The notes: a model not told the origin generated them from the sequence alone. Numbered from the stretch's first letter, positions 14,219-42,449 are shown. The stretch is 59,160 bases of DNA from Candidatus Parcubacteria bacterium (GCA_026004535.1 BPJI01000001.1:497424-556583), one strand, 5' to 3'. Translations and numbers: made by a program.

Positions 14219-14236
14219 TATAATTTTCTATTTTTA

Positions 14237-15885: not shown

Positions 15886-16033
15886 TTATCATTAGAACTT
15901 CCTCTCTATTGGTTTATTTTAATTAATAATATTCTAAATTTACACTGGGACTAATAAATATCTTATATATTCTTCATCTAAAACTTTGTCATAGCTATCA
16001 GGAGATTATAAAATATTTAGCATATAATCAAAT

Positions 16034-18331: not shown

Positions 18332-19477
18332 TGTTGTTGGTACTATTTGTTGTCTTAAAGATGTTGTTGTTTGAGTTGAGGTTTGAATTTTAATTTGATT
18401 TGTTCTATCTGTAGTTGTTGGTAATCTTACGATTTCGTACGTCGTAAATTTGTTTATTTCTCTTTTTTCTTCTGTGTAAGTGATAATATTTTCTTTCTTT
18501 TCTTCTTTATAGGTTATTGTTTGAGTTTGAGTTTGTGGTTGAATATTTAATTGAAGTTTTGAGATTGAAGTTGAAGTTGGTTGAGAAAAAATTTGACCTA
18601 AATATGGGGGTGTTGATTCTTTGTAACCTAAGGCTATAAGTCTTATTTCTAAAGTTTGTTTTTGTTTTTCAAGATTAGCTAATTTTGTTTGTTTTTGTTT
18701 AGCTACTTCTGTTTTAAGACATTCTTTCTTTTGTTTAATTGACCAATTGTTTTCTGTACATTGAAGAAATCTATCTTTAATTACTGAAAGAGCACAAGAA
18801 TAATTATTAGTTGAACAATCATAAACAAAGATAGTATCTTGAAGTATTTGCTCCCAGTCTTGTTTTTTAGACTTATAATCATCATGAATATTCGCCGGTT
18901 TGTATCACCATTGTATTTTATTATAGCCGACGCTCTTCATTCTCATTGAATTCCATCTTTAAATAAGTTTCAAAGCTGCAGCATATAATGAATCTTCTAG
19001 ATTCCAAGGATTTTTATTTTTAAGTTCTGGATAAGATAACCAAGTTGTAGGTTGAAATTGAGTGTAACCAATACCAAAATCTGGAGAAAAAGGAACTTTG
19101 TTGATATCTAAGACCTAAATTTTTAGGTTATTTTTTCTAAAGCTGAGTATTGCTCTGTACACCAACTTGTTCGAGCTGTTGTAGAATAGCATTTTGTACC
19201 CTCAATAGGCCTGGGTCTACTTCTAAGTACATCACAATACTCTACACATCTCTGAATATTGCTTATCTTTATCGCCCAAATTGTTTCCCATAATCTTTAG
19301 TAAATCCACTCTCTTTTTCTAAAATGGTTAATAAATAGGAAGGCGTTTTAAGCCCTGATTATTTTAGTTACCTCTATCCACAGCTTCAATAATTTCTTCC
19401 CTCCAGGCAAGAGCAATTACGCCTACAATTATGACAAGAAGGTAAATTAAAATAATTAACCGCGCACTCTGCTTCAT
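18332..19477 (-). pseudogene. decayed 5' region of the LTD gene (signal anchor + lytic-transglycosylase-like segment)
   Basis: ATG at comp(19475..19477) is in frame with the LTD ORF and encodes MKQSARLIILIYLLVIIVGVIALA. I count 10 in-frame stops (TAA, TAG and TGA) in the next 190 codons. The segment VPFSPDFGIGYTQFQPTTWLSY..NPWNLEDSLYAAALKL is SLT-like. Confidence 0.7.
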
Positions 19478-20267: not shown

Positions 20268-20360
20268 TATTTAAATTAACGACAATTATTTCGAAAAACG
20301 ACCTAATATAATTTTATTATAAAAATTTTTTAAAAACTTCACTAGTAATATATTTCTTTT

Positions 20361-20457
20361 ATACAAAACAATATTCTAACATTCTATAGACTACAACCCA
20401 CCCTCCGCATCCTCCCGTTTTTCGAACGGCCACTGTTAGAATATTTTTATCTTGTAT
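20361..20457. repeat. palindromic repeat, long form with ~45-nt GC-rich module
   Basis: ATACAAAACAATATTCTAACATTCTATAG-ACTACAACCCACCCTCCGCATCCTCCCGTTTTTCGAACGGCCAC-TGTTAGAATATTTTTATCTTGTAT. Confidence 0.9.
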
Positions 20458-20747: not shown

Positions 20748-20771
20748 AATTTAATTATATTGAAGATTTTG

Positions 20772-20820
20772 ATATAAAACAATATTCCAATATTCTATAG
20801 AATGTTAGAATGTTTTATAT
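20772..20820. repeat. palindromic repeat, short form (diverged)
   Basis: ATATAAAACAATATTCCAATATTCTATAGAATGTTAGAATGTTTTATAT. Confidence 0.85.
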
Positions 20821-21334
20821 CAAATAAAATTTGTTTTTAATTGGGTTATTCTTATGAATTAGAATTATTTTTATTAATTTTGTTTTAGCGAGATGATTTT
20901 TAAAGTAGCATATTCATCTTAGCTTTTGGTATTTTCTATTTTAAAAAATTTAATAAAAATTAAGGTTAATGAATAAGTTAAGCCTGAGACAATTATTAAC
21001 GTAGCTAAGTTAATTTTTGAGTAAAGAAAATAACTTAAAAGGCTTTTACTAATACTTACTAAATTAATTATTGAAGCTAAAAAAGCAAATATACTACCAG
21101 TAACCAAATTTTATGTTTTTTTGAGCAATAAAAATTAGTATTGTTAAATAACAATATATCTTCGAAGAATTTTAATTGCCCAACCCAAAATTGAGATTGC
21201 TCCGAAATAAGCTGCTTAAGTAGCAGTTAATCACTATTTATAATTTAATATTTATTTTAATTTTTACTAACTTATTATAAATATGATATAATTAATAAAA
21301 CACGGTCGAAGTTAATTTTAATATTTACCCCAAA

Positions 21335-21485: not shown

Positions 21486-21519
21486 AAAAAACCTCCTCTT
21501 AAATAAGAGGAGGTTTTTT
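21486..21519. terminator. bidirectional intrinsic terminator
   Basis: AAAAAA-CCTCCTCTT-AAAT-AAGAGGAGG-TTTTTT; perfect 9-bp stem flanked by A-run and T-run between convergent genes. Confidence 0.8.
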
Positions 21520-22471
21520 AATTTCTTAATTTTGATTTAATAAAAAAAATACCGCTGATTGTAATTATCGTTACAAGCACTAAATATAAAATTAAAGCCT
21601 CCATTAAAGTAAAAGGAATACTTTTTAACCTACCCAAAATAAAAGCTAACAACCAAGATGTAATAGAAATAACTCCCATTGAGACAAAAATTTTCTCCTT
21701 ATAATTATTTAATTTTTGAAAATCAAATTCAATTAATTTAGGTGAAACAATTAAATTCATTAAAAATCCATTAATAACAATAGTCAAAACAATTATCATT
21801 TTAAACATAAACTTAACAGAATTATGATATTTATTCATATCAGAGAAATAAATAAAAACACCGGAAACAATAATTAATGCTAAAATTAACCAAATAAAAT
21901 CCGATAAATTATCTAAAATTGATTTTTCTTTATCATCAATCTTTCTATCTTTTAAAAATTTAAAGAAAAGATAATCAACCACAGAAACGATCCCTAAACC
22001 AATTCCAGCAGATAAAGCGTGAATAAAGATGCTTAATTTTTGTAACTTAATCGCTGCGTTAATTATTGTATCTTTATAAATTAAGTATGAATTAATAAAG
22101 ATCAAAAAACATAATAAAGCGGATAAAAGACACCAACTACAAAACTTTTTTAATTTAAAAAGCTGGATAAATGTTAAATAAATGGAAAAAAGAACAGCTA
22201 AAAGTGATAGATTGAAAACAAAAAACTCTAAAAAATAATTTTTAAATCTAAATATTAGAAATAATAGGTAAAAAATTAAAATAAAACCATAATAAGCAAA
22301 ACCTAAAATTGTATTTTCAATTCCTAAAAATTTAGAATATTCACTGTGAATAACTGGGTCGCATTTGGCCCTCAAGGGGCAAATCAGAGGTTTTTTACGG
22401 TATTTATATCTGTGGATATAATAAGCAATATAACAACCAGTTATAGCTGAAACTAAAATAATGAATAACAT
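21518..22471 (-). CDS. VKOR-like (vitamin K epoxide reductase family) membrane protein fused to an extra polytopic domain
   Basis: 317 aa; loop cysteines CPLRAKCDPVIHSEYSKFLGI and CxxC (CSWC) in a TM helix; ~170-aa C-terminal multi-TM extension. Confidence 0.7.
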   Translation of the reverse strand: MLFIILVSAITGCYIAYYIHRYKYRKKPLICPLRAKCDPVIHSEYSKFLGIENTILGFAYYGFILIFYLLFLIFRFKNYFLEFFVFNLSLLAVLFSIYLTFIQLFKLKKFCSWCLLSALLCFLIFINSYLIYKDTIINAAIKLQKLSIFIHALSAGIGLGIVSVVDYLFFKFLKDRKIDDKEKSILDNLSDFIWLILALIIVSGVFIYFSDMNKYHNSVKFMFKMIIVLTIVINGFLMNLIVSPKLIEFDFQKLNNYKEKIFVSMGVISITSWLLAFILGRLKSIPFTLMEALILYLVLVTIITISGIFFIKSKLRN

Positions 22472-22633
22472 ATTTTATCTTGAAAAAAATTAATTATTTT
22501 TATTTTAACATGATTTTTAATTTATAAATCAGTTATAAAATAAAATTATGACGGTTATAATTTTAATAACTTAAACTTTTTTTAAATTTTTAAGCAAACT
22601 ACGAAACTTTTAAAGCACAACGAAAATCACTCA

Positions 22634-23011
22634 TTATTTTTTAAAAATTCTTATTTTAAATTTACCTTCTCCTAAAAAGAATAAAGCTAAAGAAGCCAAA
22701 GCAAGCCCTAAATCACGAAAACCTGAAGGATTAAAACCCAAAGAAAAAAGAAAAATTGAAATAAGGTGCAAGGTAGCTAAAAGAGAAACTATTTTAATGA
22801 ACAAGCCTAAAACAAAACAAATTCCGATTAGACAATCAAAAACACCATTCATTAAGACTATCTTTTGCTTAAAAATATCATTCATATAAATAAATTTTAC
22901 TTCGGGAATTAAATCAATCCATCTTTGAGGATAAATTAACTGACTAATACCAAAATAAAGGAAAACAATTCCCAATCCAACTCGCAAAATTAATTTACCG
23001 TAGTTTTCCAT
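22634..23011 (-). CDS. DoxX-family membrane protein
   Basis: 125 aa, four TM helices; N-terminal LILRVGLGIVFLYFGISQL pattern. Confidence 0.55.
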   Translation of the reverse strand: MENYGKLILRVGLGIVFLYFGISQLIYPQRWIDLIPEVKFIYMNDIFKQKIVLMNGVFDCLIGICFVLGLFIKIVSLLATLHLISIFLFSLGFNPSGFRDLGLALASLALFFLGEGKFKIRIFKK

Positions 23012-23493
23012 TATTGTCTTAATTTTCCAATTTCAAATCGCTTTAGTGCTTCTTCTGGTTTTTCTTGTCCTCCATGTTTTCTTTCAAATACTTGAGTACC
23101 ATCTTTACCACATATTGACAAAACTTTATCTTCCCCACCCGGGTGTTTATCAATCCATTCGGTTAAATCATAAACTCTATCTCGAATGACAGTCCAGCAA
23201 CTTTCTTTAGAATTATTTTGAGATACCTCTTCTAATGTATACAGATTTTCTTGTGGCTGAGTTGAAGTTTGCTGTAATTGTTGGAAATTAATAGATTCAG
23301 TTGATGTTGGCTCAGAAATCATAAATTTTTCTAATAAATCTTCACTAACAGGTATATTTGGTACCGAAAATTGGCTAACTGCTTGATTATTGTTGGTTTG
23401 AGATTGTTTATTTGTTAATTTAAATAAAGCTAAACCTCCTATCACAATTATAAGAATAGTTATTAAGCCTATATAAACGGATTTTTTTCCCAT
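23011..23493 (-). CDS. membrane-anchored cytochrome b5-like heme-binding domain protein
   Basis: 160 aa; N-terminal TM; YTLEEVSQNNSKESCWTVIRDRVYDLTEWIDKHPGGEDKVL contains the b5 HPGG motif. Confidence 0.8.
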   Translation of the reverse strand: MGKKSVYIGLITILIIVIGGLALFKLTNKQSQTNNNQAVSQFSVPNIPVSEDLLEKFMISEPTSTESINFQQLQQTSTQPQENLYTLEEVSQNNSKESCWTVIRDRVYDLTEWIDKHPGGEDKVLSICGKDGTQVFERKHGGQEKPEEALKRFEIGKLRQ

Positions 23494-23715
23494 TTGGTCA
23501 AATATTAATTATTATTTAAAATTTCGACTTTATTTTATAAATATAAAAATTGCTATCAGATTTATAAAAATTACTCTTAAAAATAACACAATAATTTATA
23601 TTGCCGCAACAACCAAGATAGAAATCAATATTATAAACATCAACTTTCTTCAAAATATTAACGAAAGTTTCATTTATTACCCAAAACAAACTAAAAATAA
23701 TCCAGTTTATTTTTG

Positions 23716-24030
23716 TTAATGCTTCTTTTCCCATTTTTCTGCATTTTCTAAAATATCACCCTCTTGAAATAAAATTGCTCTTAAGGCTTCTCTCCACTTA
23801 GGTAATTTTCTTGTAAGCCACTCCAAATCAATAGCAAAGTGTTCAAATTCTTCCTCTTGAGCATGTTCCATAATTGCTTTAACTTCTGGGTCTTTAGTAA
23901 CAGCAATTCTTTGTTGATACCAATTTATAGCTTCTGCCTCCTCAACCAATGAAGCAATAATCCTGGCAAAATCTCTTAATTCTGAAGATAATTCCTCTGG
24001 TGGTTCATGATATTGATCAAACCCTGCCAT
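23716..24030 (-). CDS. EncFtn-like (encapsulated-ferritin family) two-helix ferritin-like protein
   Basis: 104 aa; HEPPEEL, VEEAEAINWYQQR and HAQEEEFEHFAIDLEWL match the EncFtn E-x-x-H/E-rich di-iron pattern as I recall it; TGTATAAT -10 element about 40 nt upstream. Confidence 0.65.
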   Translation of the reverse strand: MAGFDQYHEPPEELSSELRDFARIIASLVEEAEAINWYQQRIAVTKDPEVKAIMEHAQEEEFEHFAIDLEWLTRKLPKWREALRAILFQEGDILENAEKWEKKH

Positions 24031-24082: not shown

Positions 24083-24175
24083 TTACTCATACCTTAAAGC
24101 AACAATTGGATCTAAATTGCTTGCTCTTTTTGCTGGATAAAGCCCAAAAATCAAACCAATCAATGTTGAAACAAT
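24083..24175 (-). pseudogene. orphan 3'-terminal fragment of a macB-like permease gene (last 30 codons + stop)
   Basis: Encodes [30 protein letters not shown]; 89 bp (24087..24175) match 32247..32335 with 3 mismatches, all synonymous. Confidence 0.85.
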
Positions 24176-24392
24176 AAATTAGGCCGTTTGTTGAAAGTTT
24201 TTTACAAAATTTTTTGTGTCGTTTTTTTAATTCTTAAAATTTGTTGTGGATAAACAATGCGATTAAGAGAGGTTTCTCCGTAGGAGAAATTTGAAGCGAG
24301 TGCCGAAGGCAATAAAACCATATTAATCGCTGTTGAGCGTGCTAATCAGTCAGGAGTAAACGAATGTGAACTGAGGTTTTCTTGGGCGAGTG

Positions 24393-25121
24393 TTATTCTT
24401 TTTCAATTATTGCGATGTAATATGATTTTTCAGAGTCAATAAATTTCTTAATTCTCCAACCAGTATCTTTAAGAATTTCTTTCATTTCTTTTTTTGAAAC
24501 AATTAGATAATCAAACCAATCTCCAATATAATTTCTAAATCTAATCCTAATACGAAGTTGCCCAGGCATTCTCCCTCTTTTTCGATTGAATTTGTGATAT
24601 GATAGATGTGCTGGATCTTTTGTTTTGTAAGGGTCATTGCTTTCAGCAATTATCAAAGCTTTTTGAGTTGTTAATTTGGAGAGCTTCTTTAATAACTTTC
24701 TTGCTTTTTTAGGATTTCCAAATAAACCAAAATTATTACCAAACATAATTACAGTATCAAAAACAACAGGCCTTAATTTTTCAATTTTTTCAAAAGGTAA
24801 AACTTTTGCTTTCTTGATTCCTCTTCTTTTACAAATTTTTATTGCCAGAGGGGAATTATCAATAGCAAGAACATCAAAACCTCTTTTCTGCAAATAAAGC
24901 GAAACTCTTCCAGCCCCAGCACCAACATCAAGAACTTTGCCTTTTACAAATTTTATTGCTTCTTTCTCATGTTTTGGCCATTTCTCAAAATCAGCAAAAT
25001 AAACAGACGGACCGCCAGATAAATCAACGAATCCATCATCTCTTTCAATAATTTCATAAGATTCTTTACCTTGAAAAAAAGCCCATATTTCTTGGCCGTA
25101 AGCATCCTTTTTTGGTTCCAT
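24393..25121 (-). CDS. class I SAM-dependent methyltransferase
   Basis: 242 aa; motif I VLDVGAGAGRVSLYL, motif II-like FDTVIMFGN. Confidence 0.8.
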   Translation of the reverse strand: MEPKKDAYGQEIWAFFQGKESYEIIERDDGFVDLSGGPSVYFADFEKWPKHEKEAIKFVKGKVLDVGAGAGRVSLYLQKRGFDVLAIDNSPLAIKICKRRGIKKAKVLPFEKIEKLRPVVFDTVIMFGNNFGLFGNPKKARKLLKKLSKLTTQKALIIAESNDPYKTKDPAHLSYHKFNRKRGRMPGQLRIRIRFRNYIGDWFDYLIVSKKEMKEILKDTGWRIKKFIDSEKSYYIAIIEKE

Positions 25122-25373
25122 AATAGTAATTAAAATTTTGAATTTTATAAAACTATTTATTTAAGCGAGACAGAGAGAATTACGTCTAACATCAGGATTA
25201 TAAGAAGCGTGTGTAGCCCGATTTTGGTGGAGAAGCCTGTTCGTAATTTTAGTCGTAAAACTATTAAAACTTATCTATATTATAACAAAAAATTCTTTAT
25301 GAATATGACTATATTTACAATAAAATTTCTATAAAAATAAATTTTTATTAAAATCTTACGAAAATCTGGTTTA

Positions 25374-26747
25374 ATGTTATTAAATATTAAAATGGACAAA
25401 ACAATAAACAGTATTATTAAGTTAACCGAAAAAATAGCGGATGGCGAAAGTTTTACTGCTTCGAAAATTATTAATGCGATAAATTGTATAGAGAACTCAG
25501 ATAAAAATCTCAACGTGTATAAGGGAATTTTGATAGTATATTATTTTAGAAAATATAAAGATTTTCCTAAAAAGAATCTTAACAAACTTAAAACATATAG
25601 TAGTTTTGAAAAATGTCTTCATATCTTGAGAGGAAATATATTAAATCCTACTGAGATAGCCAATACATTTCTGGATATTCTTAAAATCCCAGACAGTGAT
25701 GGAACCATAAGGGATATCTTGATGGGGTGTTTTTACGGGGCACTGTGGCCTTTTATGAATAATCCTAAAAATTTTAATATAGCTATAGAGTATGGGCTAG
25801 CTTTGATCGAATCAGCTTTTTCATTAGACAATTTTAACATTCATAAAAAGATAAATATTATAAATGGAGACCAAGGAATAAAAATAATTAATATGGCTGG
25901 TAGTGGCAAAAAAGAGATTAAATTACTCAATTTAAGCTCAATGGCCGCTATTATTACAGCAGCGACCGGCAAAAAGATTAGAGAAAATATCGTGGTAGAA
26001 AAAACCACATCCAGAGCGACTTCCAGTATAACTGGATCGAGCGACATTTTTGAACTTGCCGGAGTAAATCTAAATTTGCCGATCCATAAGATGGCTGAGA
26101 TTTCGTTAACAACAAAACTTGGCATATTTGATATAAACGCGATTGTTCCCAGATTAAATCATGTGTATGATGGCCGTTTGTACAATGTGCAGGTTTTTGC
26201 TGGATTAGTAGGCGGGGCGGCTATAGTAAATCCGGTTGATGCTGATTTGATCAATTATGGTTTAACAAGGGGGTCAACGCAATTGTGTTTGGCTATTTTG
26301 AATAGGTTGTACCCCACTAAAAATATTCTTGTACTACAAGGGAAGGATCCGCATGGCATGCCAGTGATCGATCAAGTCTCAATAGCAGCCAATACCGAAG
26401 TTGCTCAAATTATTAAGAATAAGATAACTATTAGAGAGATAGCCCCGGAAGATTTTGGGTTTGATTTCATACCATTCAAGTATGTAGAGACTACACAGAA
26501 TCAAAGGGAGAATCTTAATGAATTTATTAAAATTTTGATTGGCAGGGGTGATAAAGCACTTAAGCAAACAGTAGCAATGGAAGTCGCTTTGAACCTTTTT
26601 GGATTAGAAGTGGTTGACAATTTAAAAACCGGAGCTGCGCTGGCACTAGAGACTATTAACTCCGGTCTCGGAATTAAGGTTCTTGAAGATTTGGTCGTTC
26701 ATTCTGACGGCGACAAACAAAGATTCAGTAGCCTAGCGAATATCTAA
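25374..26747 (+). CDS. divergent TrpD-like (glycosyltransferase family 3 / anthranilate phosphoribosyltransferase fold) protein
   Basis: 457 aa; NLSSMAAIITAATG, SSITGSSDIFELAGVNL, ILVLQGKD..MPVIDQVS, IAPEDFGF follow the TrpD order, but GTGGD is AGSGKK and KHGNR is VEKTTSR; alternative start at 25392. Confidence 0.6.
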   Translation: MLLNIKMDKTINSIIKLTEKIADGESFTASKIINAINCIENSDKNLNVYKGILIVYYFRKYKDFPKKNLNKLKTYSSFEKCLHILRGNILNPTEIANTFLDILKIPDSDGTIRDILMGCFYGALWPFMNNPKNFNIAIEYGLALIESAFSLDNFNIHKKINIINGDQGIKIINMAGSGKKEIKLLNLSSMAAIITAATGKKIRENIVVEKTTSRATSSITGSSDIFELAGVNLNLPIHKMAEISLTTKLGIFDINAIVPRLNHVYDGRLYNVQVFAGLVGGAAIVNPVDADLINYGLTRGSTQLCLAILNRLYPTKNILVLQGKDPHGMPVIDQVSIAANTEVAQIIKNKITIREIAPEDFGFDFIPFKYVETTQNQRENLNEFIKILIGRGDKALKQTVAMEVALNLFGLEVVDNLKTGAALALETINSGLGIKVLEDLVVHSDGDKQRFSSLANI

Positions 26748-26748
26748 T

Positions 26749-27726
26749 ATGCAAAAGAATTTAATAAATTATCTTATTCTACCAAAAGGAATACAAAGTA
26801 TTATCTTCAAATCCTATGTTTATTTTATCCCGTTCTTATATTCATTAACCATCGACTCAAACTATATTCGTAATTTTCTGCTGTTTATCGTTATTTTTAG
26901 TTTATTTGAATTTGTAATAAATCCATCTCGTTACCAGCTAAACGATATAGCAGATTACAAAGAAGACCAGCAAAGACATCACCACTGGCAGCGTCCAGTA
27001 AACGAAGCAAACAAATCTTTAATTTTAACTGTGGCATTATCAAGATTTGTGTTAGGGACTACAATTGCTTTCATACTTAATATGAAATTAGGCTACCTCG
27101 CAATACTGTTTATAGCGCTACAACTTTTTTATGACTATTTTGCTAAAAAACTCTCTGCCCTTTTGTCTATATTTACCGTTGCTATAGCGTATCCACTAAG
27201 ATCTTTAACAATATTTTATGGTTTGAGTATTAGTCTCAATAAAACAGTTCTTCTAATTTTGTTTACCCTATTTTTTTACTCAACTTATATGGTTATTCAA
27301 TGGCGGAAATATGAATCACTATTTATTGCAAAAAATAAGCTTTTACCAAAACCTCATTCTGAATTTTTCAGAAGTTCCAAAACAAACCTTCTTGTACATT
27401 CTGTTTTAATAGCGTTCTTTATCGTATTTATTCTACTAATAATTACATTAATGAAAATAGATACAGGTAAAAATATAATCTCTGGTGTATCCATGTTTCT
27501 GATAATTATACTTATGCTTTTGAATAAAGAAATTATCAGTCGTATTATTGCTCAATTTCATAATATATTTATTGCTTTTTTATTTATCGTTTTTACCTTG
27601 GATAAATTCCTGATCGGTCTTGCTACTGCTGTGATTACAATTTTTATTGTATTTTGGTATCACAAGGTTTATATAGATAAATTTGCCAGTCGTTATTTTA
27701 GTGAAGCCCACTATGAAAAAACATAA
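26749..27726 (+). CDS. UbiA-superfamily-like polytopic membrane protein (prenyl/phosphoribosyl-transferase-like)
   Basis: 325 aa, about 8 TM helices; first Asp-rich motif NDIADYKED present; second motif not evident. Confidence 0.55.
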   Translation: MQKNLINYLILPKGIQSIIFKSYVYFIPFLYSLTIDSNYIRNFLLFIVIFSLFEFVINPSRYQLNDIADYKEDQQRHHHWQRPVNEANKSLILTVALSRFVLGTTIAFILNMKLGYLAILFIALQLFYDYFAKKLSALLSIFTVAIAYPLRSLTIFYGLSISLNKTVLLILFTLFFYSTYMVIQWRKYESLFIAKNKLLPKPHSEFFRSSKTNLLVHSVLIAFFIVFILLIITLMKIDTGKNIISGVSMFLIIILMLLNKEIISRIIAQFHNIFIAFLFIVFTLDKFLIGLATAVITIFIVFWYHKVYIDKFASRYFSEAHYEKT

Positions 27727-28843
27727 AAAACTTCCTTTATTTAAGGCGCAAATTCCTAAAGAAAACCTAAATCACGCTCTGAAAGAGGCGAAGATGGATC
27801 AGAATTTTGTGCAAAATATTATTCTAAAAGAAGGCTACTCTCCCATAGGCAAATCTGTTGCCATTGGACCGCTCTCTGATGTTAGCTTTTTGAAAAATAA
27901 GTTTTCCTGTCATTATAATCTAAATAAATTTAACGAAGTTCCTAGATCAAAACAACATTTTGTAACAGGTTTCGGACCGACTAATGCTCCAACAGCAGGC
28001 ACTCTTTCAATAATTTTAAGAGCAGTATTTTTTGAGAAAAAAACAGGTATTGATTCTACAATTATTATCTCTAATTTAGGTGCATTCAACTCAAGAAATA
28101 TTGCGTTGGATAAGATCGAATACCTTACAGAAAGATTTGCCAAATTTATTCGTTCTTTAGGGTTTAAAGGAGAATTAAGAACTCATAACAACTTTAATCT
28201 ACTGGTAGCATCAAGTTTAACCTCCAAGGTGTTAACCATTAAAGATTTTCTAGAAAACGAAGAAGTAACTACAAATTTATATAAAAAATTAGGCATCCAG
28301 GGCAAGGATTTTCCTACTTTTATTGATGCCAATTTTACAGTTGCTGATATTCTCCTTCCTGCTATTTTAAAGAAGAAAGAAAGGATATTGGTTTTTGTAG
28401 GTATCGAGGAGTATTATTTTCCTAAACTAGCAAATTTAGTAATACAAAGATTTAACAGGGATTATCCGAAGCAATTCATATCAGAAAATACTTTGGTTGC
28501 GGCGGCGTTCGGTCATCTTATTGAGGGTTTAAATGGTTTTCCGAAAATGTCAAAGAGCATTCCGGAATCCTCTATAAATCTTGATGATTCTCCAGAAGAA
28601 TTAGAACAAAAAATTTTAAGGTGTGATCCAAGGGACGAGAAAATTATTCTCCAAATGATTAATTTAGTTTCTGACTGGGATTTGAAAAAAATTATGAAAG
28701 CAAACAAGGCTTTTAAAAAAGGCGGCAATGAATGGTTAAAATTCAAAAAGGATTATCTTCAATACTTTCTCAGTTTGAAAAAGTTGTGGGATAAAACAGA
28801 AAATAAAAAGTATAGGTTTAAAGTAGATTCGCTTTTTAAATAA
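27683..28843 (+). CDS. divergent TrpRS-like class I aminoacyl-tRNA-synthetase paralogue
   Basis: KMSKS retained (GFPKMSKSIPES) and colinear with TrpRS (FTVADILLPA, LVIQRFN), but PTAGT replaces TIGN/HIGH and GIEE replaces GEDQ. ATG at 27713 (MKKHKK...) is a likelier start, overlapping the previous stop. Confidence 0.65.
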   Translation: MPVVILVKPTMKKHKKLPLFKAQIPKENLNHALKEAKMDQNFVQNIILKEGYSPIGKSVAIGPLSDVSFLKNKFSCHYNLNKFNEVPRSKQHFVTGFGPTNAPTAGTLSIILRAVFFEKKTGIDSTIIISNLGAFNSRNIALDKIEYLTERFAKFIRSLGFKGELRTHNNFNLLVASSLTSKVLTIKDFLENEEVTTNLYKKLGIQGKDFPTFIDANFTVADILLPAILKKKERILVFVGIEEYYFPKLANLVIQRFNRDYPKQFISENTLVAAAFGHLIEGLNGFPKMSKSIPESSINLDDSPEELEQKILRCDPRDEKIILQMINLVSDWDLKKIMKANKAFKKGGNEWLKFKKDYLQYFLSLKKLWDKTENKKYRFKVDSLFK

Positions 28844-28847
28844 ATTT

Positions 28848-29987
28848 ATGGATGAGCATAAAACTGTTATCATTTTAGGTGGAACTGGGTTTGTGGGTAG
28901 GGCTGTAACAGAAAAATATTTAAAAAATAAATGGCGAGTTGTTATTCCAACAAGAAGTAGAAATTTAGCTGAGGCAAAAAATAAATTATTGTCGCACGGT
29001 TTTGATGAAAATTCCCTGGAAAACTTTTTATCAGCTAATCTTTTATTGTTTGCTCTCGATGTTGATTTATCTGAAAAAAAATGGTCCGAACCAGATAATT
29101 GGTCTCGATTATTGAGAGAAATAAATATACCAATTTTTTCTATATTGCGAGTTATCAATTTTGTCGGTGAAACATCAAAGTCAGCAGAGGAGATTTTGAA
29201 ATCCAACATTAATACCTTAGTGAGTATCTTCACCCTGGTTAGATATATAAAATCTCAAAATAAAAGCACTATTTTTGTAAATATGGGTTCTGTTGTAGAA
29301 AAAAGAAGTAATACAAATCTATCTCCTTATGAATATGCCAAAAAAGTTGCGTACCAAGAAATTAAGAAAAGTAACTTGTGCGATTTTCATTTTATAGCTG
29401 AGTACATCAAAGGTAGAGGTGAACAAAAGATGAAATCAGTTGCCCCGATATTATGGCAGAAACTTAAATTCTCCCACAGATGGTTTTTTGGTTTTAAAGT
29501 AAGCGTAATAGACGTAGATGATCTAGCAGAAGTTATCTATCATCTTATTGAGGAGACTAAAATTAAACAACAAAGATTTAAACCAATTGAAGTTTATGTG
29601 ACAAATGGAGAATTGACCTTTGGTGAAATTGTCAAAAATCTTCTTCCAGAAAGTAACCGCAGTATTCCTAAACAAATATTTCCAAATTGGCTCGCCTTTC
29701 TCTTCTTATATTTTTATTCGCTTATAATTCCACAAATAAAACCGAATGATCAATTCATTAGAAGATTGGCTAATTTTGCAGAAAGAAGTATAAAGAAAGA
29801 GAATAAAACAGATGGGTTCAAAACTGCTGAGGAAATAAAAAAAATGGCTTTAGATTCTAAAAAATATGAAATATTGGAAAAGGAACCAAGTTTAATTATC
29901 TCTGACAAACAATCTCCTGTAATTTATGTTTTAATAGAAAAAAATGAGATAGAGCTGAAATTAATAGTTCAAAAAGCACTTCTTTAA
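28848..29987 (+). CDS. NAD(P)-dependent SDR/epimerase-family protein
   Basis: 379 aa; Rossmann motif ILGGTGFVGRAV; YxxxK (SPYEYAKK). Confidence 0.7.
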   Translation: MDEHKTVIILGGTGFVGRAVTEKYLKNKWRVVIPTRSRNLAEAKNKLLSHGFDENSLENFLSANLLLFALDVDLSEKKWSEPDNWSRLLREINIPIFSILRVINFVGETSKSAEEILKSNINTLVSIFTLVRYIKSQNKSTIFVNMGSVVEKRSNTNLSPYEYAKKVAYQEIKKSNLCDFHFIAEYIKGRGEQKMKSVAPILWQKLKFSHRWFFGFKVSVIDVDDLAEVIYHLIEETKIKQQRFKPIEVYVTNGELTFGEIVKNLLPESNRSIPKQIFPNWLAFLFLYFYSLIIPQIKPNDQFIRRLANFAERSIKKENKTDGFKTAEEIKKMALDSKKYEILEKEPSLIISDKQSPVIYVLIEKNEIELKLIVQKALL

Positions 29988-29993
29988 TTCTAA

Positions 29994-30965
29994 TTAGTCC
30001 TCTATTTGTTTTTGGTATTCAGAGATGGGGAATGGACCGTTTTTGTTTCGTTTCATCGCAAAAAAAGCAACACGATATTTCATTTTGTATGGTATTGCAG
30101 AAAATCGGTGAGGTATTATTTCTAAAATATCCTCAAAACCGAAATATCTTACTAGTTTAAAAAGTGCCTTTTTGTTTGGGATTAAAACTAAACCGCCCTT
30201 ACTTGAAGCACCGATATTGTATCGTTCCGATATCGTTTTTGGAGGGTGTGGAATATAATTTTTAATAAACTCCAAATCTCTTTCGGTGTGAGGAGAAGGA
30301 GTAAACTGATTTTGTAACTTACTGTAATTAATTTTTGTTTTTTTTTCAAATTCTAAATAGTTTTTAATAGACAGTATTTTGTCACCCACAAATAAACCTT
30401 CAAAATCATTTTCGTCCATATCATTTAACATCCACCACGAAGGAATATCTTCACTTTGGTCAGAACTATAATGAACATGAGAATCAACTAGAATGGTTGA
30501 AGTTGTCACTTTAGAGATTCTTCTCATCACACCAATAGGATCTTCTAAATGGTAAAGTATTCCTGCAAGAATTGTGATGTCAAATTTTCCGAGATCCCTT
30601 TCATTGATTTCTTCAGCGGTGAGGTTTAAGAATTTGACGTTTTTTACCCCTAGATATTTCTTAATAGCGTTAGCTTGCTCTATATTCTTATTGTTCGAAT
30701 CAATACCTATTACTTCTTTTGGGCCATATTTACTTGCTTCAAAGGAGAATCCGCCGCAATTACAACCGACATCTAAAATTCTCAAGTTTCTGAGAGAGCC
30801 CCCGAATAATTTCAAAAGGGGTGGAAAGAAAAGATTAATTGCATCTCTCATTCTGTAAATCTCTGGTGCCGTATTAAAACCATTACCCAAATCAACGTCG
30901 TGAAAAAATGGGGCTAAGTGTTGTAATTCTTTTGGTATTTTTTGTTTTTTTATGTGTCTTTTCAT
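29994..30965 (-). CDS. class I SAM-dependent methyltransferase (CmoB/DUF1698-like architecture)
   Basis: 323 aa; ILDVGCNCGGFSFEA motif I, FDITILAGILYHLEDP; resemblance to the CmoB family is from memory only. Confidence 0.65.
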   Translation of the reverse strand: MKRHIKKQKIPKELQHLAPFFHDVDLGNGFNTAPEIYRMRDAINLFFPPLLKLFGGSLRNLRILDVGCNCGGFSFEASKYGPKEVIGIDSNNKNIEQANAIKKYLGVKNVKFLNLTAEEINERDLGKFDITILAGILYHLEDPIGVMRRISKVTTSTILVDSHVHYSSDQSEDIPSWWMLNDMDENDFEGLFVGDKILSIKNYLEFEKKTKINYSKLQNQFTPSPHTERDLEFIKNYIPHPPKTISERYNIGASSKGGLVLIPNKKALFKLVRYFGFEDILEIIPHRFSAIPYKMKYRVAFFAMKRNKNGPFPISEYQKQIED

Positions 30966-30970
30966 GGCTA

Positions 30971-31011
30971 TAAAAAAGGCTGGGGCTATTTTTATTATAA
31001 TGGCCCCAGCC
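30971..31011 (-). terminator. intrinsic terminator of trpS
   Basis: On the minus strand GGCTGGGGC-16 nt-GCCCCAGCC followed by TTTTTT; the stem starts at the trpS stop codon. Confidence 0.75.
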
Positions 31012-32006
31012 TATGGACCGATTTGCATGACCCTCCTGACCTCGGCAAGAGTTTCGATGGCATTTTCTCTTGCCACCTTGGCGCCCTCTTCCAGAACGGA
31101 CTGAATATACGACGGATCCCGCGTGATCTCGGCTCTTTTGGACTGAAACTCCTCGAGGAAATTCTGAACAATACGGGTCAGAATCTGCTTGAACTGACCC
31201 ATCACTGGTTTGCCTTTCTTGTGCGCCTCGATAATGGCATCAACCTCATCGCGTTCAGATCCGGTTTTTGCCAACCCCTTGGCAATCAAGATAAGACTTT
31301 CCAGTTTCTCGTTCATCACTCCCTCGAAAGCGGTCTCAGCCGCCTTGATCTTGCTGGCAACCGTCTTGGCATCATCCGTCAAGAAGATGGCACCGCCGGG
31401 ATTGGTCTTGCTCATCTTGCCTCTCCCCCGAAGGGAAAGGATACGAAGTGACTTGACCTGTAATACCTGGGGAATTGGGAAAATCTCCCCATACCTCTTG
31501 TTGAACCTGCGGGCGAGTAGGCGTGTGACCTCCATGTGAGCGAGCTGATCTTCTCCGACCGGAACCTTTTTGGCTCTGTTGAGTAAAATGTCAGCAGCCA
31601 TCATGACCGGGTAGAGAAGTAGAAGAGCGTTTGCTGTTTCCGGCCGTGCGCTGTTCTTAAGCTTATCCTTGAGAGTTGGTACCCTCAAGAGTTCAGCCAC
31701 AGAGACAAGCCTGGCCAGAAGCGCGGTAAGCGTGGTTACCTCTCCTGCTATATCAGACTGGAGATAGATTCTTGCTTTCTGCGGATCCACTCCAAGCGCG
31801 ATATAGTCAGCTACGACTCTGTAGATGTACTGCCTTACAGTAGCCGGTTCATTGTCAGTGATCGCATGAAGATCAGCAACGAAAACCACCGGAGACACGC
31901 CCTGTGCCTGAAGTTCAATAATGGGCGCAACCGCCCCCAGGTAGTTAGCGACGGTCAAGTCGCCAGTGGGCCTGATGCCTGTCAGCAACTCAACCTTGTA
32001 CTGCAT
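31011..32006 (-). CDS. trpS: tryptophan--tRNA ligase, canonical bacterial type, on a GC-rich foreign segment
   Basis: MQYKVELLTGIRPTGDLTVANYLGA..VADLHAIT..YPVMMAADILL..VPVGEDQLAHMEVTRLLARRFN..KMSKT. Start chosen at ATG comp(32004..32006), 6 nt after AGGAGGTG; the track ORF runs to 32081. Confidence 0.9.
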   Translation of the reverse strand: MQYKVELLTGIRPTGDLTVANYLGAVAPIIELQAQGVSPVVFVADLHAITDNEPATVRQYIYRVVADYIALGVDPQKARIYLQSDIAGEVTTLTALLARLVSVAELLRVPTLKDKLKNSARPETANALLLLYPVMMAADILLNRAKKVPVGEDQLAHMEVTRLLARRFNKRYGEIFPIPQVLQVKSLRILSLRGRGKMSKTNPGGAIFLTDDAKTVASKIKAAETAFEGVMNEKLESLILIAKGLAKTGSERDEVDAIIEAHKKGKPVMGQFKQILTRIVQNFLEEFQSKRAEITRDPSYIQSVLEEGAKVARENAIETLAEVRRVMQIGP

Positions 32007-32039
32007 GGCATTCACCTCCTTTTTTAGGGTTCTGAGTTC

Positions 32040-32068
32040 ATTATAACATTTTTTTTTATTTTTGTCAA
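32040..32068 (-). promoter_or_regulatory. consensus sigma70-type promoter of trpS
   Basis: Minus strand TTGACA (32063..32068) - 17 nt - TATAAT (32040..32045), with TG two nt upstream of the -10; about 33 nt upstream of the ATG. Confidence 0.7.
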
Positions 32069-32242
32069 TCCTTTTAGGCATGGTAAAAAACCTTTAAACA
32101 GTATTAATTAAACTATCTCCCTTTACATTATTAAAATTTTTTAAAATTTTTATCATATTATTTCATTTATATTTATTATTAATTATACTTTATATTTTAT
32201 TATTATACCATACCCCTAAAATTGTTTTGATTTTCAATAAAC

Positions 32243-33454
32243 CTATTCATATCTTAAAGCAACAATTGGGTCTAAATTGCTTGCTCTTTTTGCTGGATAA
32301 AGCCCAAAAATCAAACCAATCAACGTTGAAACAATTACTGAAATTAAAATTGCCTTTAGAGAAATATAAGTTGTAAGATTGGCAAATTTACTAACCCCAT
32401 AAGAAATTAAAATTCCCAACATAATTCCCAAAATCCCTCCAATTAAAGTAATAAAAGTTGATTCTAATAAAATTTGATTTAAGATATCTCTGTTTTTTGC
32501 TCCAACAGCTTTTCTTAGCCCTATTTCTTTTGTTCTTTCGGTAACGCTTGTTAGCATCATATTCATAATTCCTATTCCACCAACCAAAAGTGACACACCA
32601 GCAATAAAAGAAAGAAAAATTGTAAAAGTGTTGATGATTGAAGTTAGGGTGCTTAAAATATCTTCTTGAGAAAAAACAGTAAAATCGGGTTCATCAACTC
32701 GGTGCAAAATTGTAAGTCTATTTGTAATTTCTTCTCTTACTTTTTCAATATTTTCTTTAGAATCGACCTTAACCGCAATTGAATTAAAATATTCTGTTCC
32801 AGCTAATTGTTTTTGGGCAACTGTATAGGGAATCATTACAAAATCATCATAACTTACAAAACCAGTCGAACCCTTGGCCTTCAAAACTCCAATTACTCTA
32901 AATGTTAAATTTTTAATTTTAATTTTTTTACCAAGAGGATCAACATCGCCAAATAAATCTTTGGCAATTTGATTGCCCAAAATTGCAAATTTTGAATAAC
33001 TTCTTATTTGCTCATCAGTAAATAAATTTCCATTTTCTATTTCCATATTTCTGACTGTAAAAAAATCTACATCAACTCCCAAAATTGTTGTGTTTCTATT
33101 ATTCCCAGTTTCGGCAACAACCTGAAACCTTCTTTGAACCTCAGGAGAAATTGCAACAATATTGTCAATTTTTTTAATTTCTTTAACATCATCTTTTTTT
33201 AAGACCTGAGCCTCACCCCTTCCGCTTGAAATAAAACCTCTCCCTGGCTGAACAATACCAGGAAAAACAATTAAATTATTTGAACCTAAACTTTCAATGC
33301 TCTTTTGAATACTAATTTTTGAACCTTCACCCAAAGAAACCATCGAAATAACAGCAGCAATACCAATAACAATTCCCAAAATCGTAAGGCCTGTTCTTAA
33401 CTTATTACTTTTTAATGAATTAAAAGATTCTTGGATTAAATCAATTGTTTTCAT
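32243..33454 (-). CDS. MacB-type ABC transporter permease (MacB periplasmic domain + FtsX)
   Basis: 403 aa; N-terminal TM, large periplasmic domain, C-terminal FtsX-like 3-TM block ending [19 protein letters not shown]. Confidence 0.85.
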   Translation of the reverse strand: MKTIDLIQESFNSLKSNKLRTGLTILGIVIGIAAVISMVSLGEGSKISIQKSIESLGSNNLIVFPGIVQPGRGFISSGRGEAQVLKKDDVKEIKKIDNIVAISPEVQRRFQVVAETGNNRNTTILGVDVDFFTVRNMEIENGNLFTDEQIRSYSKFAILGNQIAKDLFGDVDPLGKKIKIKNLTFRVIGVLKAKGSTGFVSYDDFVMIPYTVAQKQLAGTEYFNSIAVKVDSKENIEKVREEITNRLTILHRVDEPDFTVFSQEDILSTLTSIINTFTIFLSFIAGVSLLVGGIGIMNMMLTSVTERTKEIGLRKAVGAKNRDILNQILLESTFITLIGGILGIMLGILISYGVSKFANLTTYISLKAILISVIVSTLIGLIFGLYPAKRASNLDPIVALRYE

Positions 33455-34166
33455 TATTGTGATATAAAATTTTTCTATTTTTAACTTTTTCTTCGTTTAT
33501 TATCTCACCATCTCTTATTCTAATTATTTTTTCTGCATGTTCAGCGACATATTCTTCGTGTGTGATCAAAACAATGGTTATTCCTTTTTCAAGATTCAAT
33601 TTTTGAAAAGTATGTAAAACTATTTCACCGGTTTTTGTATCCAAATTTCCAGTAGGTTCATCAGCTAAAATAATCTCTGGATCATTCATTAGTGCCCGAG
33701 CAATAGCAACTCTTTGCATCATTCCTCCTGAAAGCTGATTAGGATAGTGATAAATAAAATTTAAAGGAAAGGCGGATGCTTTTAAACATTCAATAGCTTT
33801 CTCTTTTCTTATGTTAATTGGTATTTCAGAATAAATTGAAGGCAGACTAACATTTTCTAAAACATTTTTTCTTGGAAGTAGAAAGAATGCTTGAAATACA
33901 AACCCTATTTTTTTACTTCTTAATCTTGCCAGCTCATCATCATTTAACTTAGAAATATCTTGTCCATCTAAAATATAAGTTCCACTTGTTGGTCTATCCA
34001 AAAGCCCTATAATATGCATAAGAGTTGATTTTCCTGAACCAGAAGGTCCCATAATTGAGACAAATTCACCTTTATTGATTTTTAAGTTTATGTTTTTTAA
34101 AGCAATAGTTTCAATCTCACCTGTCTTATAAATTTTGTTTATATTTTTAAGCTCAACCATTATCAT
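33441..34166 (-). CDS. ABC transporter ATP-binding protein (MacB/LolD type)
   Basis: Walker [10 protein letters not shown], signature [15 protein letters not shown], Walker [12 protein letters not shown]. Confidence 0.92.
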
Positions 34167-34171
34167 TGAAA

Positions 34172-35848
34172 TTATCTTTGAATGTTTTGAGGTCTTGACT
34201 GAGGAGCAAATTGTCTTGGATTAGGTAAAAATCTTTGAAAAAGTCCTTGTGATTGTTTATTATCAAAATTATTTTCAATTTTTCTAACAACAATAATGTC
34301 TCCTTCTTTTAAGCCTTCTATAACTTCAGTATTGTTGCTATCAGAAATACCTTTTTGAATAAATACTCTTTTTAAGGGATAAGTTAATTTAATAGGTCTG
34401 TCATGTATCTCTCTTAGATTTTCTTTATCATCAGGAACTTCAACATAATTTCTACTTTCAAAATTTTTAATTGCTGAATTTGGTATTATTAAAACATTTT
34501 CTTTTGATTGGGTGATAATTTCAACATTGGCAGTCATACCAATTTTGACTTCTGAATTATCCTCCAGACTAACCTTAACTAAATAATTTACAACTCCCTG
34601 TTCTACTTCTCCAACTGGTGAAATATAAAAAACTTTACCTTTTAATTCCAGCTCAGGTAAAGCATCAAAAGTTATAATCGCATCTTGACCAACCTTAACT
34701 TCAGCAGCATCTATCTCGTTTAAAGAAACTTCAATTGTTTTTTCATTTGAAAGAAGCTTAGCTAAAACAGAATTAGAAGATACAGAATCATTTGTTTTTA
34801 CATTCACATCTTGCATTATTCCGCTTATTGGAGCATAAATATAATAATCTTTTAAGTCATCTCTTAAATCTTCAAGTTTATTTTCTTTCTGTTTAATTGA
34901 AAGCTCCAAGGATTGAATATCATATTCTTTTTGTTTGAGTGAGTCTTGATAGGAATTTAAAGCATTAACCAAAGAAGAAAGATTGTTAAGATGGTCTGCA
35001 TATTTACTATAGACTAAATTTAGATCATTATAATGTCTATCAATAATTTCTTGTTTAGTATGGTAAGATTGTTGTAAGCTCAAATCTTCTTTTAATCTTC
35101 TTATTAAATCTAATCCTGATTTAATAAAATCTTGAGTCTGCAAAAGAAAATCATAGGAATCTTTAATTAAAGAATAATCAATATTTTGGTTATTAAATTT
35201 TGCTTCTTGGAGTCTTTGGGAAATTAATAAAAAATTTGTCTTTAAATTGTTATAGATTTTTTGAGAAACATCAGATGTAATTTTGACCCCAGGAAAGTAA
35301 TAAAGATAATAATCAAGGTTGTGTTTTAAATTATCAAGCTCTTTTTCAAAATAAACCTTTCTTATTTTTTCTAAATCATCAGGGTAACTAACAAAAATAT
35401 CATTTAAATTTTTAAGCAGGCTTTCGTAATTTTTTCTTAAATCATCGCCTCTTAAAATCCTTTGATAATCATCTTTGGTTTTTTGAAGGTTTAATTTTGA
35501 GCTTTCAATATCTAATTCTAAATCTCTGATTTGTCTTTTGATGTCTGAATCATCTAAAGCAAAAAGAAGCATACCTTTATTTACATACTCTCCTTCACCA
35601 ACATAAATATTAGAAATTTTTCCTGAATCAGAAGGTTTTATCTCAAAAGCATCAGTAGTTGTGACATAACCGGTTCCGGTTACAATTTTTTGAACTGAGC
35701 CTCTTTTAACTTGAGCTAAAATATAACCTTCGCTGACCTGATTTCTTTTAAATTTTGAATAACCAAAATAACTTGCTCCTCCTATTAAAAAAATTAATAA
35801 AAATATTATTTTCTTATTTTTCAAAAATTTTATAATCCGCTCTTTCAT
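34172..35848 (-). CDS. periplasmic adaptor (HlyD/MacA-like) with long coiled-coil insert
   Basis: 558 aa; N-terminal anchor, lipoyl/beta-barrel-like segments (GKISNIYVGEGEYVNKGMLLFALD; ISGIMQDVNVKTNDSV), long coiled coil; operon with MacB-type genes. Confidence 0.75.
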   Translation of the reverse strand: MKERIIKFLKNKKIIFLLIFLIGGASYFGYSKFKRNQVSEGYILAQVKRGSVQKIVTGTGYVTTTDAFEIKPSDSGKISNIYVGEGEYVNKGMLLFALDDSDIKRQIRDLELDIESSKLNLQKTKDDYQRILRGDDLRKNYESLLKNLNDIFVSYPDDLEKIRKVYFEKELDNLKHNLDYYLYYFPGVKITSDVSQKIYNNLKTNFLLISQRLQEAKFNNQNIDYSLIKDSYDFLLQTQDFIKSGLDLIRRLKEDLSLQQSYHTKQEIIDRHYNDLNLVYSKYADHLNNLSSLVNALNSYQDSLKQKEYDIQSLELSIKQKENKLEDLRDDLKDYYIYAPISGIMQDVNVKTNDSVSSNSVLAKLLSNEKTIEVSLNEIDAAEVKVGQDAIITFDALPELELKGKVFYISPVGEVEQGVVNYLVKVSLEDNSEVKIGMTANVEIITQSKENVLIIPNSAIKNFESRNYVEVPDDKENLREIHDRPIKLTYPLKRVFIQKGISDSNNTEVIEGLKEGDIIVVRKIENNFDNKQSQGLFQRFLPNPRQFAPQSRPQNIQR

Positions 35849-39837: not shown

Positions 39838-39857
39838 AAAAAAATATTAAATAAATT

Positions 39858-40553: not shown

Positions 40554-40557
40554 ATCA

Positions 40558-42443: not shown

Positions 42444-42449
42444 ATAGCA

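Follow-up and report, generated by a model that had tools for sequence, protein, structure and literature searches.

A horizontally acquired trpS-bearing island bracketed by macB gene-tail repeats in a Candidatus Parcubacteria genome

In the present study we analysed 59 kb (hereafter, the window) of the 556-kb genome of Candidatus Parcubacteria bacterium, in which the DNA directly behind the intact macB gene (a MacB-type ATP-binding cassette (ABC) permease, 32243-33454, minus strand) proved to be a horizontally acquired genomic island, foreign to its flanks. The island spans positions 24083-32242 (8,160 bp), carries a bacterial tryptophan-tRNA ligase gene (trpS) among its cargo, and is bracketed by direct repeats of the macB 3' end. 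In our judgement it probably represents a conserved accessory cassette in circulation among Patescibacteria, acquired here recently, with macB as the target in whose tail recombination inserted it.

Results

The same island in a diverged sister genome

A scan of genome contigs and a scan of metagenome contigs (one each) with MacB yielded no close relative, the best matches being Candidatus Parcubacteria KatS3mg097 among the former (71% amino acid identity) and a 58% match among the latter. A large protein search gave relatives at 95, 92, 90, 89, and 88%, the closest of them on BPJH01000003.1 (locus L177). This locus contains the same island, in the same place and with the same repeat. The two island copies are 99.6% identical (32 differences in 8160 positions), whereas the backbone reaches only 92.4% in macB (92 differences in 1212 positions), 85-90% in the ABC ATPase gene, 47-79% in the HlyD gene, and 77% in VKOR. 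Identity steps at the macB stop codon and again at the stop codon of the orphan repeat copy, beyond which no relationship between the two genomes is left. What marks a genomic island is a much closer match to some other genome than the backbone has, within sharp boundaries, and such near-identity within a diverged backbone is incompatible with vertical inheritance and points to a recent exchange between the lineages, or delivery to both.

The differences between the two copies are distributed as a mosaic: 14 of the 32 cluster at 31392-31521 and only one falls in 24083-28825, giving a divergence of 0.9% in the trpS half vs. 0.02% in the other half, a pattern typical of homologous-recombination tracts. 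In more distant relatives, namely KatS3mg097 and L016/L086, there is no island, and VKOR-like or Cytb5/DoxX genes lie 0.6-1.5 kb behind macB. The first-pass annotation of this DNA had proposed an island-like insertion at the macB 3' end with att-like direct repeats, a proposal upheld by the identity steps in the sister genome, by these cassette-free macB neighbourhoods, and by the copies at other loci with gene-tail repeats that are described below.

With regard to gene order, VKOR is found 1.6 kb downstream of the island in the window (21518-24030) and directly upstream of the HlyD operon in L177 (2-896), and EncFtn, Cytb5, and DoxX are absent from the L177 locus. Since gene order differs between the sister genomes, the block made of operon and island has different neighbours on both sides.

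The repeat pair at the macB 3' end

The gene-attached, attL-like copy of the repeat (32243-32335, minus strand) comprises the last 30 codons and the TAG of intact macB, and the attR-like copy (24083-24175, minus strand), an orphan macB 3' end of 30 codons and TAA, forms the distal end of the island. The two align without gaps and are identical at 88 of 93 positions, all five differences being silent. Four are third-position transitions in sense codons (window positions 24164, 24110, and 24092, and GAG/GAA at 24086), and the fifth is the stop, TAA vs. TAG, at 24083. The match noticed in the first pass, 24087-24175 with 32247-32335, does contain exactly three mismatches in its 89 bp, all synonymous, and it is part of this longer repeat; likewise, alignment and translation confirm that the orphan encodes the same 30 residues plus a stop, as both copies translate on the minus strand to an identical tail. 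Similarity ends abruptly at 24175/24176 and, on the other side, at the stop codon. The orphan has no start codon, and in-frame stops precede it.

The chance expectation of such a repeat pair in the window is about 4e-32. Furthermore, the probability that five changes leave the codon meaning intact is 0.0002 under random substitution and 0.004 when only transitions are allowed, from which it follows that the repeat copies diverged while both were under coding selection. Comparison of the two copies with the macB tail of KatS3mg097 was not informative, that genome being too distant.

Between the window and L177, the orphan shows 0 changes in 93 positions and the functional macB tail 4, at repeat positions 11, 26, 32, and 65. 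Both gene-attached tails carry A83, A89, and G92, where the orphans have G, G, and A. The simplest account of this pattern would be one crossover between positions 66 and 82, which predicts it; judged from the sequences, the crossover may have taken place within 32253-32269 (24093-24109 in the orphan), between the 10th-last and the 4th-last codons. Since the orphan does not differ between the two genomes and runs on without a break into the island, the incoming DNA must include no less than its first 66 nt, and the insertion replaced at most the last nine codons and the stop of macB. The earlier idea that the element supplies a replacement gene end thus holds for that short terminal part at most, and fails for the remainder of the repeat, where it is the orphan that came in.

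The cassette in other Patescibacteria

The core of the island recurs elsewhere as a cassette in which a TrpD-like gene, in some copies a UbiA gene, a gene for a paralogue resembling tryptophanyl-tRNA synthetase (TrpRS), and a short-chain dehydrogenase/reductase (SDR) gene follow one another and converge with trpS and a methyltransferase gene (MT2) on the opposite strand. It was found in Falkowbacteria GW2011_GWC2_38_22 (L162-L164), in Komeilibacteria-like contigs (L165, L166), and in L167, L168, L172, L173, and L174, with a co-directional, distant variant in L169 and L170. Copies at these other loci share 57-89% amino acid identity with that of the window, whose nearest relatives are L173 (UbiA 73%, TrpRS-like 81.5%, TrpS 85.6%) and L165. 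Homologues of TrpS at 70-90% amino acid identity occur in many Patescibacteria bins, and scans of IMG/VR with the TrpRS-like protein and TrpS gave no viral contigs.

Flanking repeats were found by self-comparison of each locus. In L162 the cassette is bracketed by a direct repeat of approximately 255-300 nt that takes in the 3' end of a type IV secretion system pilin gene and about 115 nt downstream of it. In L167 and L168 the repeated sequence is a histidine kinase 3' end (238 nt at 93% identity and at least 391 nt at 86%, respectively, with an orphan open reading frame (ORF) of 161 aa in the latter). The targets therefore differ by lineage (macB, pilin, and kinase), and the bracketing direct repeats range across lineages from 93 to at least 480 nt, tracking each host's own allele. 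Comparison of L167 with L168 gives 92% identity in the cassette vs. 72% in the kinase flank, and the identity steps at the repeats. Only four pairs of repeats similar in size and spacing were found in 99 cassette-free loci from candidate phyla radiation (CPR) bacteria, 1.68 Mb in total, so the association of cassette and flanking repeats is not background. Three other copies are flanked by inverted repeats of the cassette's own promoter region (L165, 314 nt; L173, 204 nt; L161, 224 nt), and L172 and L169/L170 have no long bracketing repeat.

The orphan of L162 is in frame with its gene. The two differ at 13 bases, with about 11 silent changes and a single altered codon (K>R), and by an indel of 30 nt that preserves the frame (P<0.0002 under neutrality). 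Taken with the silent-only differences in the window, this indicates that two functional alleles were brought together, rather than that one decayed in place. Beyond two inward-facing promoters no sequence is conserved between the copies, and no ends in common came up when the intergenic pieces of the island were compared with all loci by BLAST; there are thus no att arms common to the cassette copies. Reduced versions with trpS only also exist, in L161 (with a 41-aa stub of MT2) and in L175 (with a 20-codon stub of the TrpD-like gene).

Several peculiarities of these loci may be recorded. Immediately upstream of the target pilin gene of L162 there is a 1,281-bp tandem duplication (7714-9330, with 336 nt repeated at 99.7%), and L168 contains a third partial histidine kinase tail (18319-18404, about 90% identical) 3.3 kb beyond the orphan. 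In L165 and L166, which come from two samples, opposite cassette ends adjoin one and the same host flank (a 103-aa gene, a LAGLIDADG gene, and tRNA-Leu), and both contigs end inside the 314-nt inverted repeat; this reflects either inversion of the cassette between its repeats or assembly ambiguity.

Recombinases and tRNA genes

The absence of a visible integrase inside the island had been remarked upon before, and it extends to the whole window: no recombinase or transposase was detected among ORFs of at least 90 aa, island included. Inside eight other cassette loci examined there was no recombinase either, and tblastn of the HTH_17 protein and the recombinase fragments described next found no remnant in the window or L177. 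A tRNA scan and Rfam searches (at gathering and E-value thresholds) detected no tRNA gene and no Rfam family in the window.

Some related copies do keep suggestive company. A 60-aa gene of the HTH_17/MerR (excisionase) family stands upstream of trpS in L165 and L173. In L161 (BPJG01000001, 7755-9590), a large serine recombinase gene with a frameshift (domains Resolvase, Recombinase, and Zn_ribbon_recom) stands between a tRNA-Ser(GGA) and the trpS remnant with its flanking inverted repeats; this is the sole recombinase case, and it stands beside a remnant. The recombinase gene has 135-nt inverted repeats of its own (7839-7973 and 9453-9587). The same tRNA-Ser(GGA), or a 3' fragment of it, adjoins trpS in L161, L175, and L173. 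In L172, a tRNA-Trp(CCA) gene (7454-7527) is located directly upstream of the TrpD-like gene. A repeat of 16 nt exact, or about 33 nt imperfect (7520-7550 and 16610-16640), takes in the last 8 nt of this tRNA and recurs 9.1 kb away, past the cassette and three genes; it may be a tRNA-type att pair, in a genome full of short intergenic repeats.

Gene content of the island

Profile searches bore out the gene content first read from the sequence, i.e., two methyltransferases, a TrpD-like/UbiA-like/TrpRS-like/SDR operon, and trpS. Next to the orphan lies a 217-nt spacer (24176-24392), identical in L177 and without a homologue in any other cassette locus. It had been called GC-rich and structured, a description that finds no support: its GC content is 36%, it folds no better than shuffled sequences (z -1.3 and -0.3), and it has no Rfam match. 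The spacer is followed by MT1 (24393-25121, minus strand), a class I, TehB-like S-adenosylmethionine (SAM) methyltransferase gene recognized by Pfam and NCBIfam. MT1 is accessory, being present in L177 and without a homologue in the other cassette loci, and its GC content at third codon positions is host-like (0.18).

The rightward operon opens with the TrpD-like gene (25374-26747, plus strand), preceded by a conserved promoter/5' untranslated region. Its product has the anthranilate phosphoribosyltransferase/GT3 fold with an N-terminal extension of about 170 aa, and it falls short of a canonical anthranilate phosphoribosyltransferase both in score (97.4 bits against a cut-off of 199.05) and in the PRPP/anthranilate motifs, which are changed (GTGGD replaced by GSGKK and KHGN by KTTS). 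Then come a UbiA-family membrane transferase gene (26749-27726, plus strand; weak best match decaprenyl-phosphate phosphoribosyltransferase), restricted to the UbiA variant of the cassette (window, L177, L172, L173), and the signature gene of the cassette (27713-28843, plus strand). The latter encodes a 376-aa TrpRS/TyrRS-like class Ic paralogue that keeps KMSKS, scores far below all trpS cut-offs, and belongs to a small family (250 proteins at E<=1e-5 in 5.8 billion). The operon closes with a gene for a NAD-dependent epimerase/SDR-fold protein (28848-29987, plus strand), which is kept in all cassette copies.

On the opposite strand, trpS (31011-32006, within the ORF 31011-32081; minus strand) is followed downstream by MT2 (29994-30965, minus strand), a TIGR04290/CmoB-like SAM methyltransferase gene, an adjacency conserved among cassette copies. 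The trpS product is a genuine bacterial TrpRS (TIGR00233, 263.5 bits against a cut-off of 176.75; 6ncr_A, E 3e-52 over residues 4-324). A perfect sigma-70 promoter for trpS-MT2 (TTGACA-17-TATAAT with TG; 32040-32068, minus strand) recurs in every copy of the cassette, the conserved end of which it marks. Because it overlies the first 25 codons of the long ORF, the true start of trpS is probably Met26, at 32006, which would place the ORF start 75 nt too early. The gene has 50.6% GC in a genome of 28% GC, and its high GC content yields long spurious antisense ORFs (30942-31451 and 31210-31539). In every host trpS exceeds its neighbours in GC content (40-52% vs. 30-36%), so the composition is a property of the cassette rather than a sign of separate acquisition; the "foreign trpS cassette" listed by the first-pass annotation as an item of its own is accordingly an integral part of the whole. 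Finally, an AT-rich proximal end (32082-32242), 99-100% identical to L177, abuts the macB stop codon.

Other features of the window

Intact macB is the last gene of an HlyD-ATPase-MacB operon, with the HlyD gene first (34172-35848) and the ABC ATPase gene in the middle (33441-34166). The window, 28% GC overall, also contains a second, divergent MacB-type permease gene (38650-39837) within a permease/ABC ATPase pair (38650-40553). This pair is followed, up to 47049, by genes for a polyprenyl synthase, a phytoene/squalene synthase, an amine-oxidase-type desaturase, a UbiA prenyltransferase, a photolyase, and a UvdE UV endonuclease; the stretch 38650-47049 looks like a carotenoid and UV-repair cluster, unusual for an ultra-small Patescibacteria genome. 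A defence-like stretch (9266-15532) comprises a type III restriction helicase (ResIII), an N6/N4 DNA methylase, RadC, and a PIN-domain protein. At 6420-8429 (minus strand) there is a 669-aa ORF without a Pfam match, with about nine tandem repeats of 78 nt (26 aa) at 7368-8229.

Additionally, a family of palindromic intergenic repeats of about 40-68 nt with the core AACATTCTAATATTCTATAGAATGTTAGAATATT occurs at 6291-6358, 15100-15167, 15822-15889, 20763-20830, and 51526-51552. Two copies, 100% identical and 722 nt apart, stand on either side of the PIN-domain gene region, and an akin palindrome is present in the relative L175 (10761-10796). This palindrome could be an operator, a terminator, or an element like a miniature inverted-repeat transposable element. 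Another repeat, of 66-101 nt, joins the palindrome motif to a GC-rich stretch (CCACAACCCACCCTCC...) and has three copies in both orientations at 86-92% identity (20354-20422, 51462-51562, and 54176-54279); the inverted pair 51462-51562/54179-54279 brackets 2.6 kb with a NERD nuclease gene.

Discussion

How the island may have entered macB

The incoming DNA would have carried a macB 3' end from a related earlier host (A11, T26, G32, T65 ... A83, A89, TAG), and this tail would have recombined with the resident macB tail through a Campbell-type single crossover or, by an equivalent route, through a double crossover with macB and the orphan as two homology arms. In either case macB would stay intact with its last nine or so codons and TAG taken from the island, and the host's own last nine codons and TAA would end up in the 5'-truncated orphan, beside the old downstream DNA. 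An island flanked by such repeats could move as linear DNA, since both of its arms would map to one recipient gene. As to the agent, we lean slightly towards the host's own homologous recombination after DNA uptake over a site-specific recombinase acting in trans. In favour of the former are the lack of a recombinase in any copy, the three host genes used in three lineages, the variable lengths of repeats that follow the host's own allele, the mosaic divergence within the island, and the lack of conserved arms. The use of different host genes without common att arms agrees no less well with recombination through homology carried along than with a dedicated integrase. Competence genes of the comEC type, moreover, are reported to be common in Patescibacteria (PMC12102498).

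Some observations weigh against insertion by recombination in the macB tail. The empty-site comparison covers distant relatives only, and no circular or excised form was observed. For RecA, 93 nt with 95% identity make a short substrate, natural transformation brings in linear single strands, so that a true Campbell circle needs another route, and the first capture of each host tail (macB, pilin, or kinase) needs an illegitimate event. Related copies adjoin a decayed large serine recombinase or carry the Xis-like HTH_17 gene, company that points to recombinase-driven mobility at some stage. Furthermore, the data fit equally an insertion placed at the stop codon itself, in which the orphan in its entirety is a passenger, and the window contig and L177 perhaps derive from one study, in which case a binning or assembly mix-up may be involved.

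Competing explanations

The locus invites comparison with integrase-less remnants of integrative elements, the cis-mobilizable elements (CIMEs). Under such a scenario, which we hold to be possible but clearly the less probable one, the repeats would be the true attL and attR of a recombinase, of the tyrosine or another type; the island would have lost the gene for it, and it would act, if at all, from elsewhere in the genome, the attP carrying the gene tail. The geometry agrees with that of e14 in icd/icdC and with the definition of CIMEs (PMC13626634; PMC5704250). A fixed core predicts that crossover intervals overlap, and those estimated for the window (66-82) and for L177 (33-82) do so; the HTH_17 gene of L165 and L173, the frameshifted recombinase of L161, and the tRNA-Ser(GGA) or its fragment beside trpS in three loci would all suit such an origin. 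Yet of the features expected of an integrase-dependent element, the locus displays the direct repeats at a gene 3' end, and neither a recombinase of its own nor one conserved attB/attP. An integrase is missing from all nine cassette loci and from the window, and no remnant of the HTH_17 gene or the recombinase could be found in the window or L177. A single attachment site is also hard to reconcile with three target genes in three lineages, with repeats that vary in length and track the host allele, and with the lack of any att-arm sequence conserved outside the promoters. Large serine recombinases, for their part, leave repeats of about 2 bp, not of 93-480 nt.

The passenger scenario just mentioned would place the insertion exactly at the macB stop, by one-sided homology with an illegitimate join or by an end-specific mechanism, the 93-nt orphan having come along from an earlier host. 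It draws on the facts that the block of high identity starts right after the macB stop and ends with the orphan stop, that the orphan is identical in both genomes, and that the junction shares only "TA" between mismatches 89 and 92. We consider it improbable, as both hosts would have to share A83/A89/TAG by descent, the recurrence of duplicated gene tails at other loci would be left without a reason, and the L167/L168 repeats fall outside the highly similar unit. An artefact, in which a shared 8-kb sequence was threaded into two contigs of metagenome-assembled genomes via the 93-nt repeat, might be prompted by a common study of origin, and on the distal side about 60 nt would be common to the orphan and the macB tail of a hypothetical L177 lacking the island, which suffices for a k-mer join. 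However, the proximal junction would share 17 nt only, and the 32 differences between the island copies, some of them clustered in a patch, show that these are distinct molecules. Unrelated assemblies have the repeat-flanked layout as well, the Falkowbacteria locus in three that are independent of one another, and we give the artefact very little credence. Even harder to accept, indeed next to incredible, is ancient duplication and decay, by which all that is left of a tandem macB paralogue would be the orphan, and the genes in between would be old residents, as the first-pass annotation had offered as an alternative. A further, divergent MacB-type permease is indeed encoded in the window; paralogues are frequent in gene families such as pilins and kinases, and the orphan of L168 is a 161-aa kinase-like ORF with protein-level divergence. 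Nevertheless, two species with a 7.6% difference in functional macB have the orphan unchanged, the island stands at 99.6% identity and the backbone at 47-92%, the differences between the repeat copies are purely silent, and the same cassette is bracketed by the tails of three unrelated genes. The relative that this alternative calls for, with a full second macB at this position and the same intervening genes, was not found among the relatives examined.

Other classes of mobile DNA were considered and rejected. A DNA transposon or insertion sequence composite is contradicted by the lack of a transposase and of terminal inverted repeats in the window copy, and by a repeat that is too long, non-identical, and marked by silent differences only; the inverted repeats of L161, L165, and L173 are duplicated promoter regions. 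Rolling-circle capture of the IS91/Helitron-like kind was dismissed because there is no Rep gene.

Relation to known systems

In E. coli K-12, e14 sits in icd in an arrangement of intact gene, element, and 5'-truncated icdC copy at the far side, with changes that are mostly silent or conservative (PMC13626634, citing Hill et al. 1989). Like e14 and phage 21-type elements, the present island lies directly behind an intact gene with a 5'-truncated C-terminal coding copy at its far side. e14, however, has an integrase and an excisionase and always uses icd, whereas the island is without both, its relatives use other genes, and most of its orphan is incoming DNA. With CIMEs (PMC5704250) it shares the flanking repeats, the lack of an integrase, the location at a gene 3' end, and a cargo that is metabolic only, and its relatives adjoin a decayed recombinase and an Xis-like gene; unlike them, no cognate integrative and conjugative or mobilizable element and no integrase were identified, and repeats of the island type are long, variable in length, and specific to the host gene.

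The layout also resembles a laboratory procedure. Insertion-duplication (Campbell-like) integration through one cloned homology segment is used in transformable bacteria, and it likewise produces an intact gene, an insert, and a 5'-truncated duplicate, with no site-specific enzyme required. Insertion-duplication is nonetheless a laboratory construct on a circular plasmid, unlike the natural island, and we know of no description of natural, recurrent Campbell-like integration with a conserved cassette. In sum, the kind of locus is known, a genomic island with gene-tail repeats, and the unusual aspects are the lack of an integrase, the switching of host gene tails, the aminoacyl-tRNA synthetase (aaRS) cargo, and the CPR host.

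The cargo and its possible role

Biosynthetic clusters may include an extra, inhibitor-insensitive aaRS as self-resistance, e.g., TrpRS with indolmycin. The cassette is comparable in that a genuine aaRS is linked to, and moves with, methyltransferases, an SDR, and transferases, and it differs in having no recognisable core biosynthetic enzyme and in that trpS is kept alone when the others are lost. To our knowledge, Patescibacteria are thought to have almost no secondary metabolism. General background to the self-resistance clusters can be found in PMC6804068. In CPR Microgenomates, TrpRS-A/ORF1 operons combine an archaeal-type TrpRS with a class-I-aaRS-like partner ORF and sometimes tRNA-Trp (PMC5370408). 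The similarity lies in unusual CPR TrpRS genes with such a partner and, at times, the tRNA; the cassette trpS, on the other hand, is of bacterial type (TIGR00233), and its partners are a TrpRS/TyrRS-like paralogue, a TrpD-like protein, an SDR, and a methyltransferase. Identification of trpS as the CPR TrpRS-A was therefore rejected, that enzyme being archaeal-type and different.

From the company it keeps, trpS may belong with its partners to a pathway centred on tRNA-Trp/tryptophan, and the annotations suggest that the cargo could be an unrecognised pathway of this kind or an inhibitor-plus-immunity system. Because trpS alone survives in L161 and L175, we infer that it is the part of the cassette under the strongest selection. 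The cassette would persist because its host needs trpS, as its only TrpRS or as an inhibitor-insensitive one. It is a tentative thought, and one we would not favour at present, that the trpS cassette is a recombinase-free mobile island that uses a neighbour-gene tail as a portable homology arm, is installed by RecA, and is kept since its TrpRS replaces or protects the host enzyme, i.e., a selfish aaRS-based module of transformation-dependent Patescibacteria.

Significance

Patescibacteria, the CPR bacteria, have genomes of 0.5-0.7 Mb with few recognisable integrases or relaxases and with competence genes, and their mobile DNA is poorly described. The locus is a concrete, datable case of inter-species transfer, with 99.6% identity in the island vs. 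47-92% in the backbone, and an essential translation enzyme travels in it with its own paralogue, a TrpD-like protein, an SDR, and a methyltransferase, once beside tRNA-Trp. More generally, the recurrent cassette leaves a repeatable footprint of duplicated host-gene tails that departs from the standard integrase model. If gene tails do serve as homology arms, this would explain how islands spread in these organisms without classical mobile-element machinery, and it would provide a simple search rule for finding more of them.

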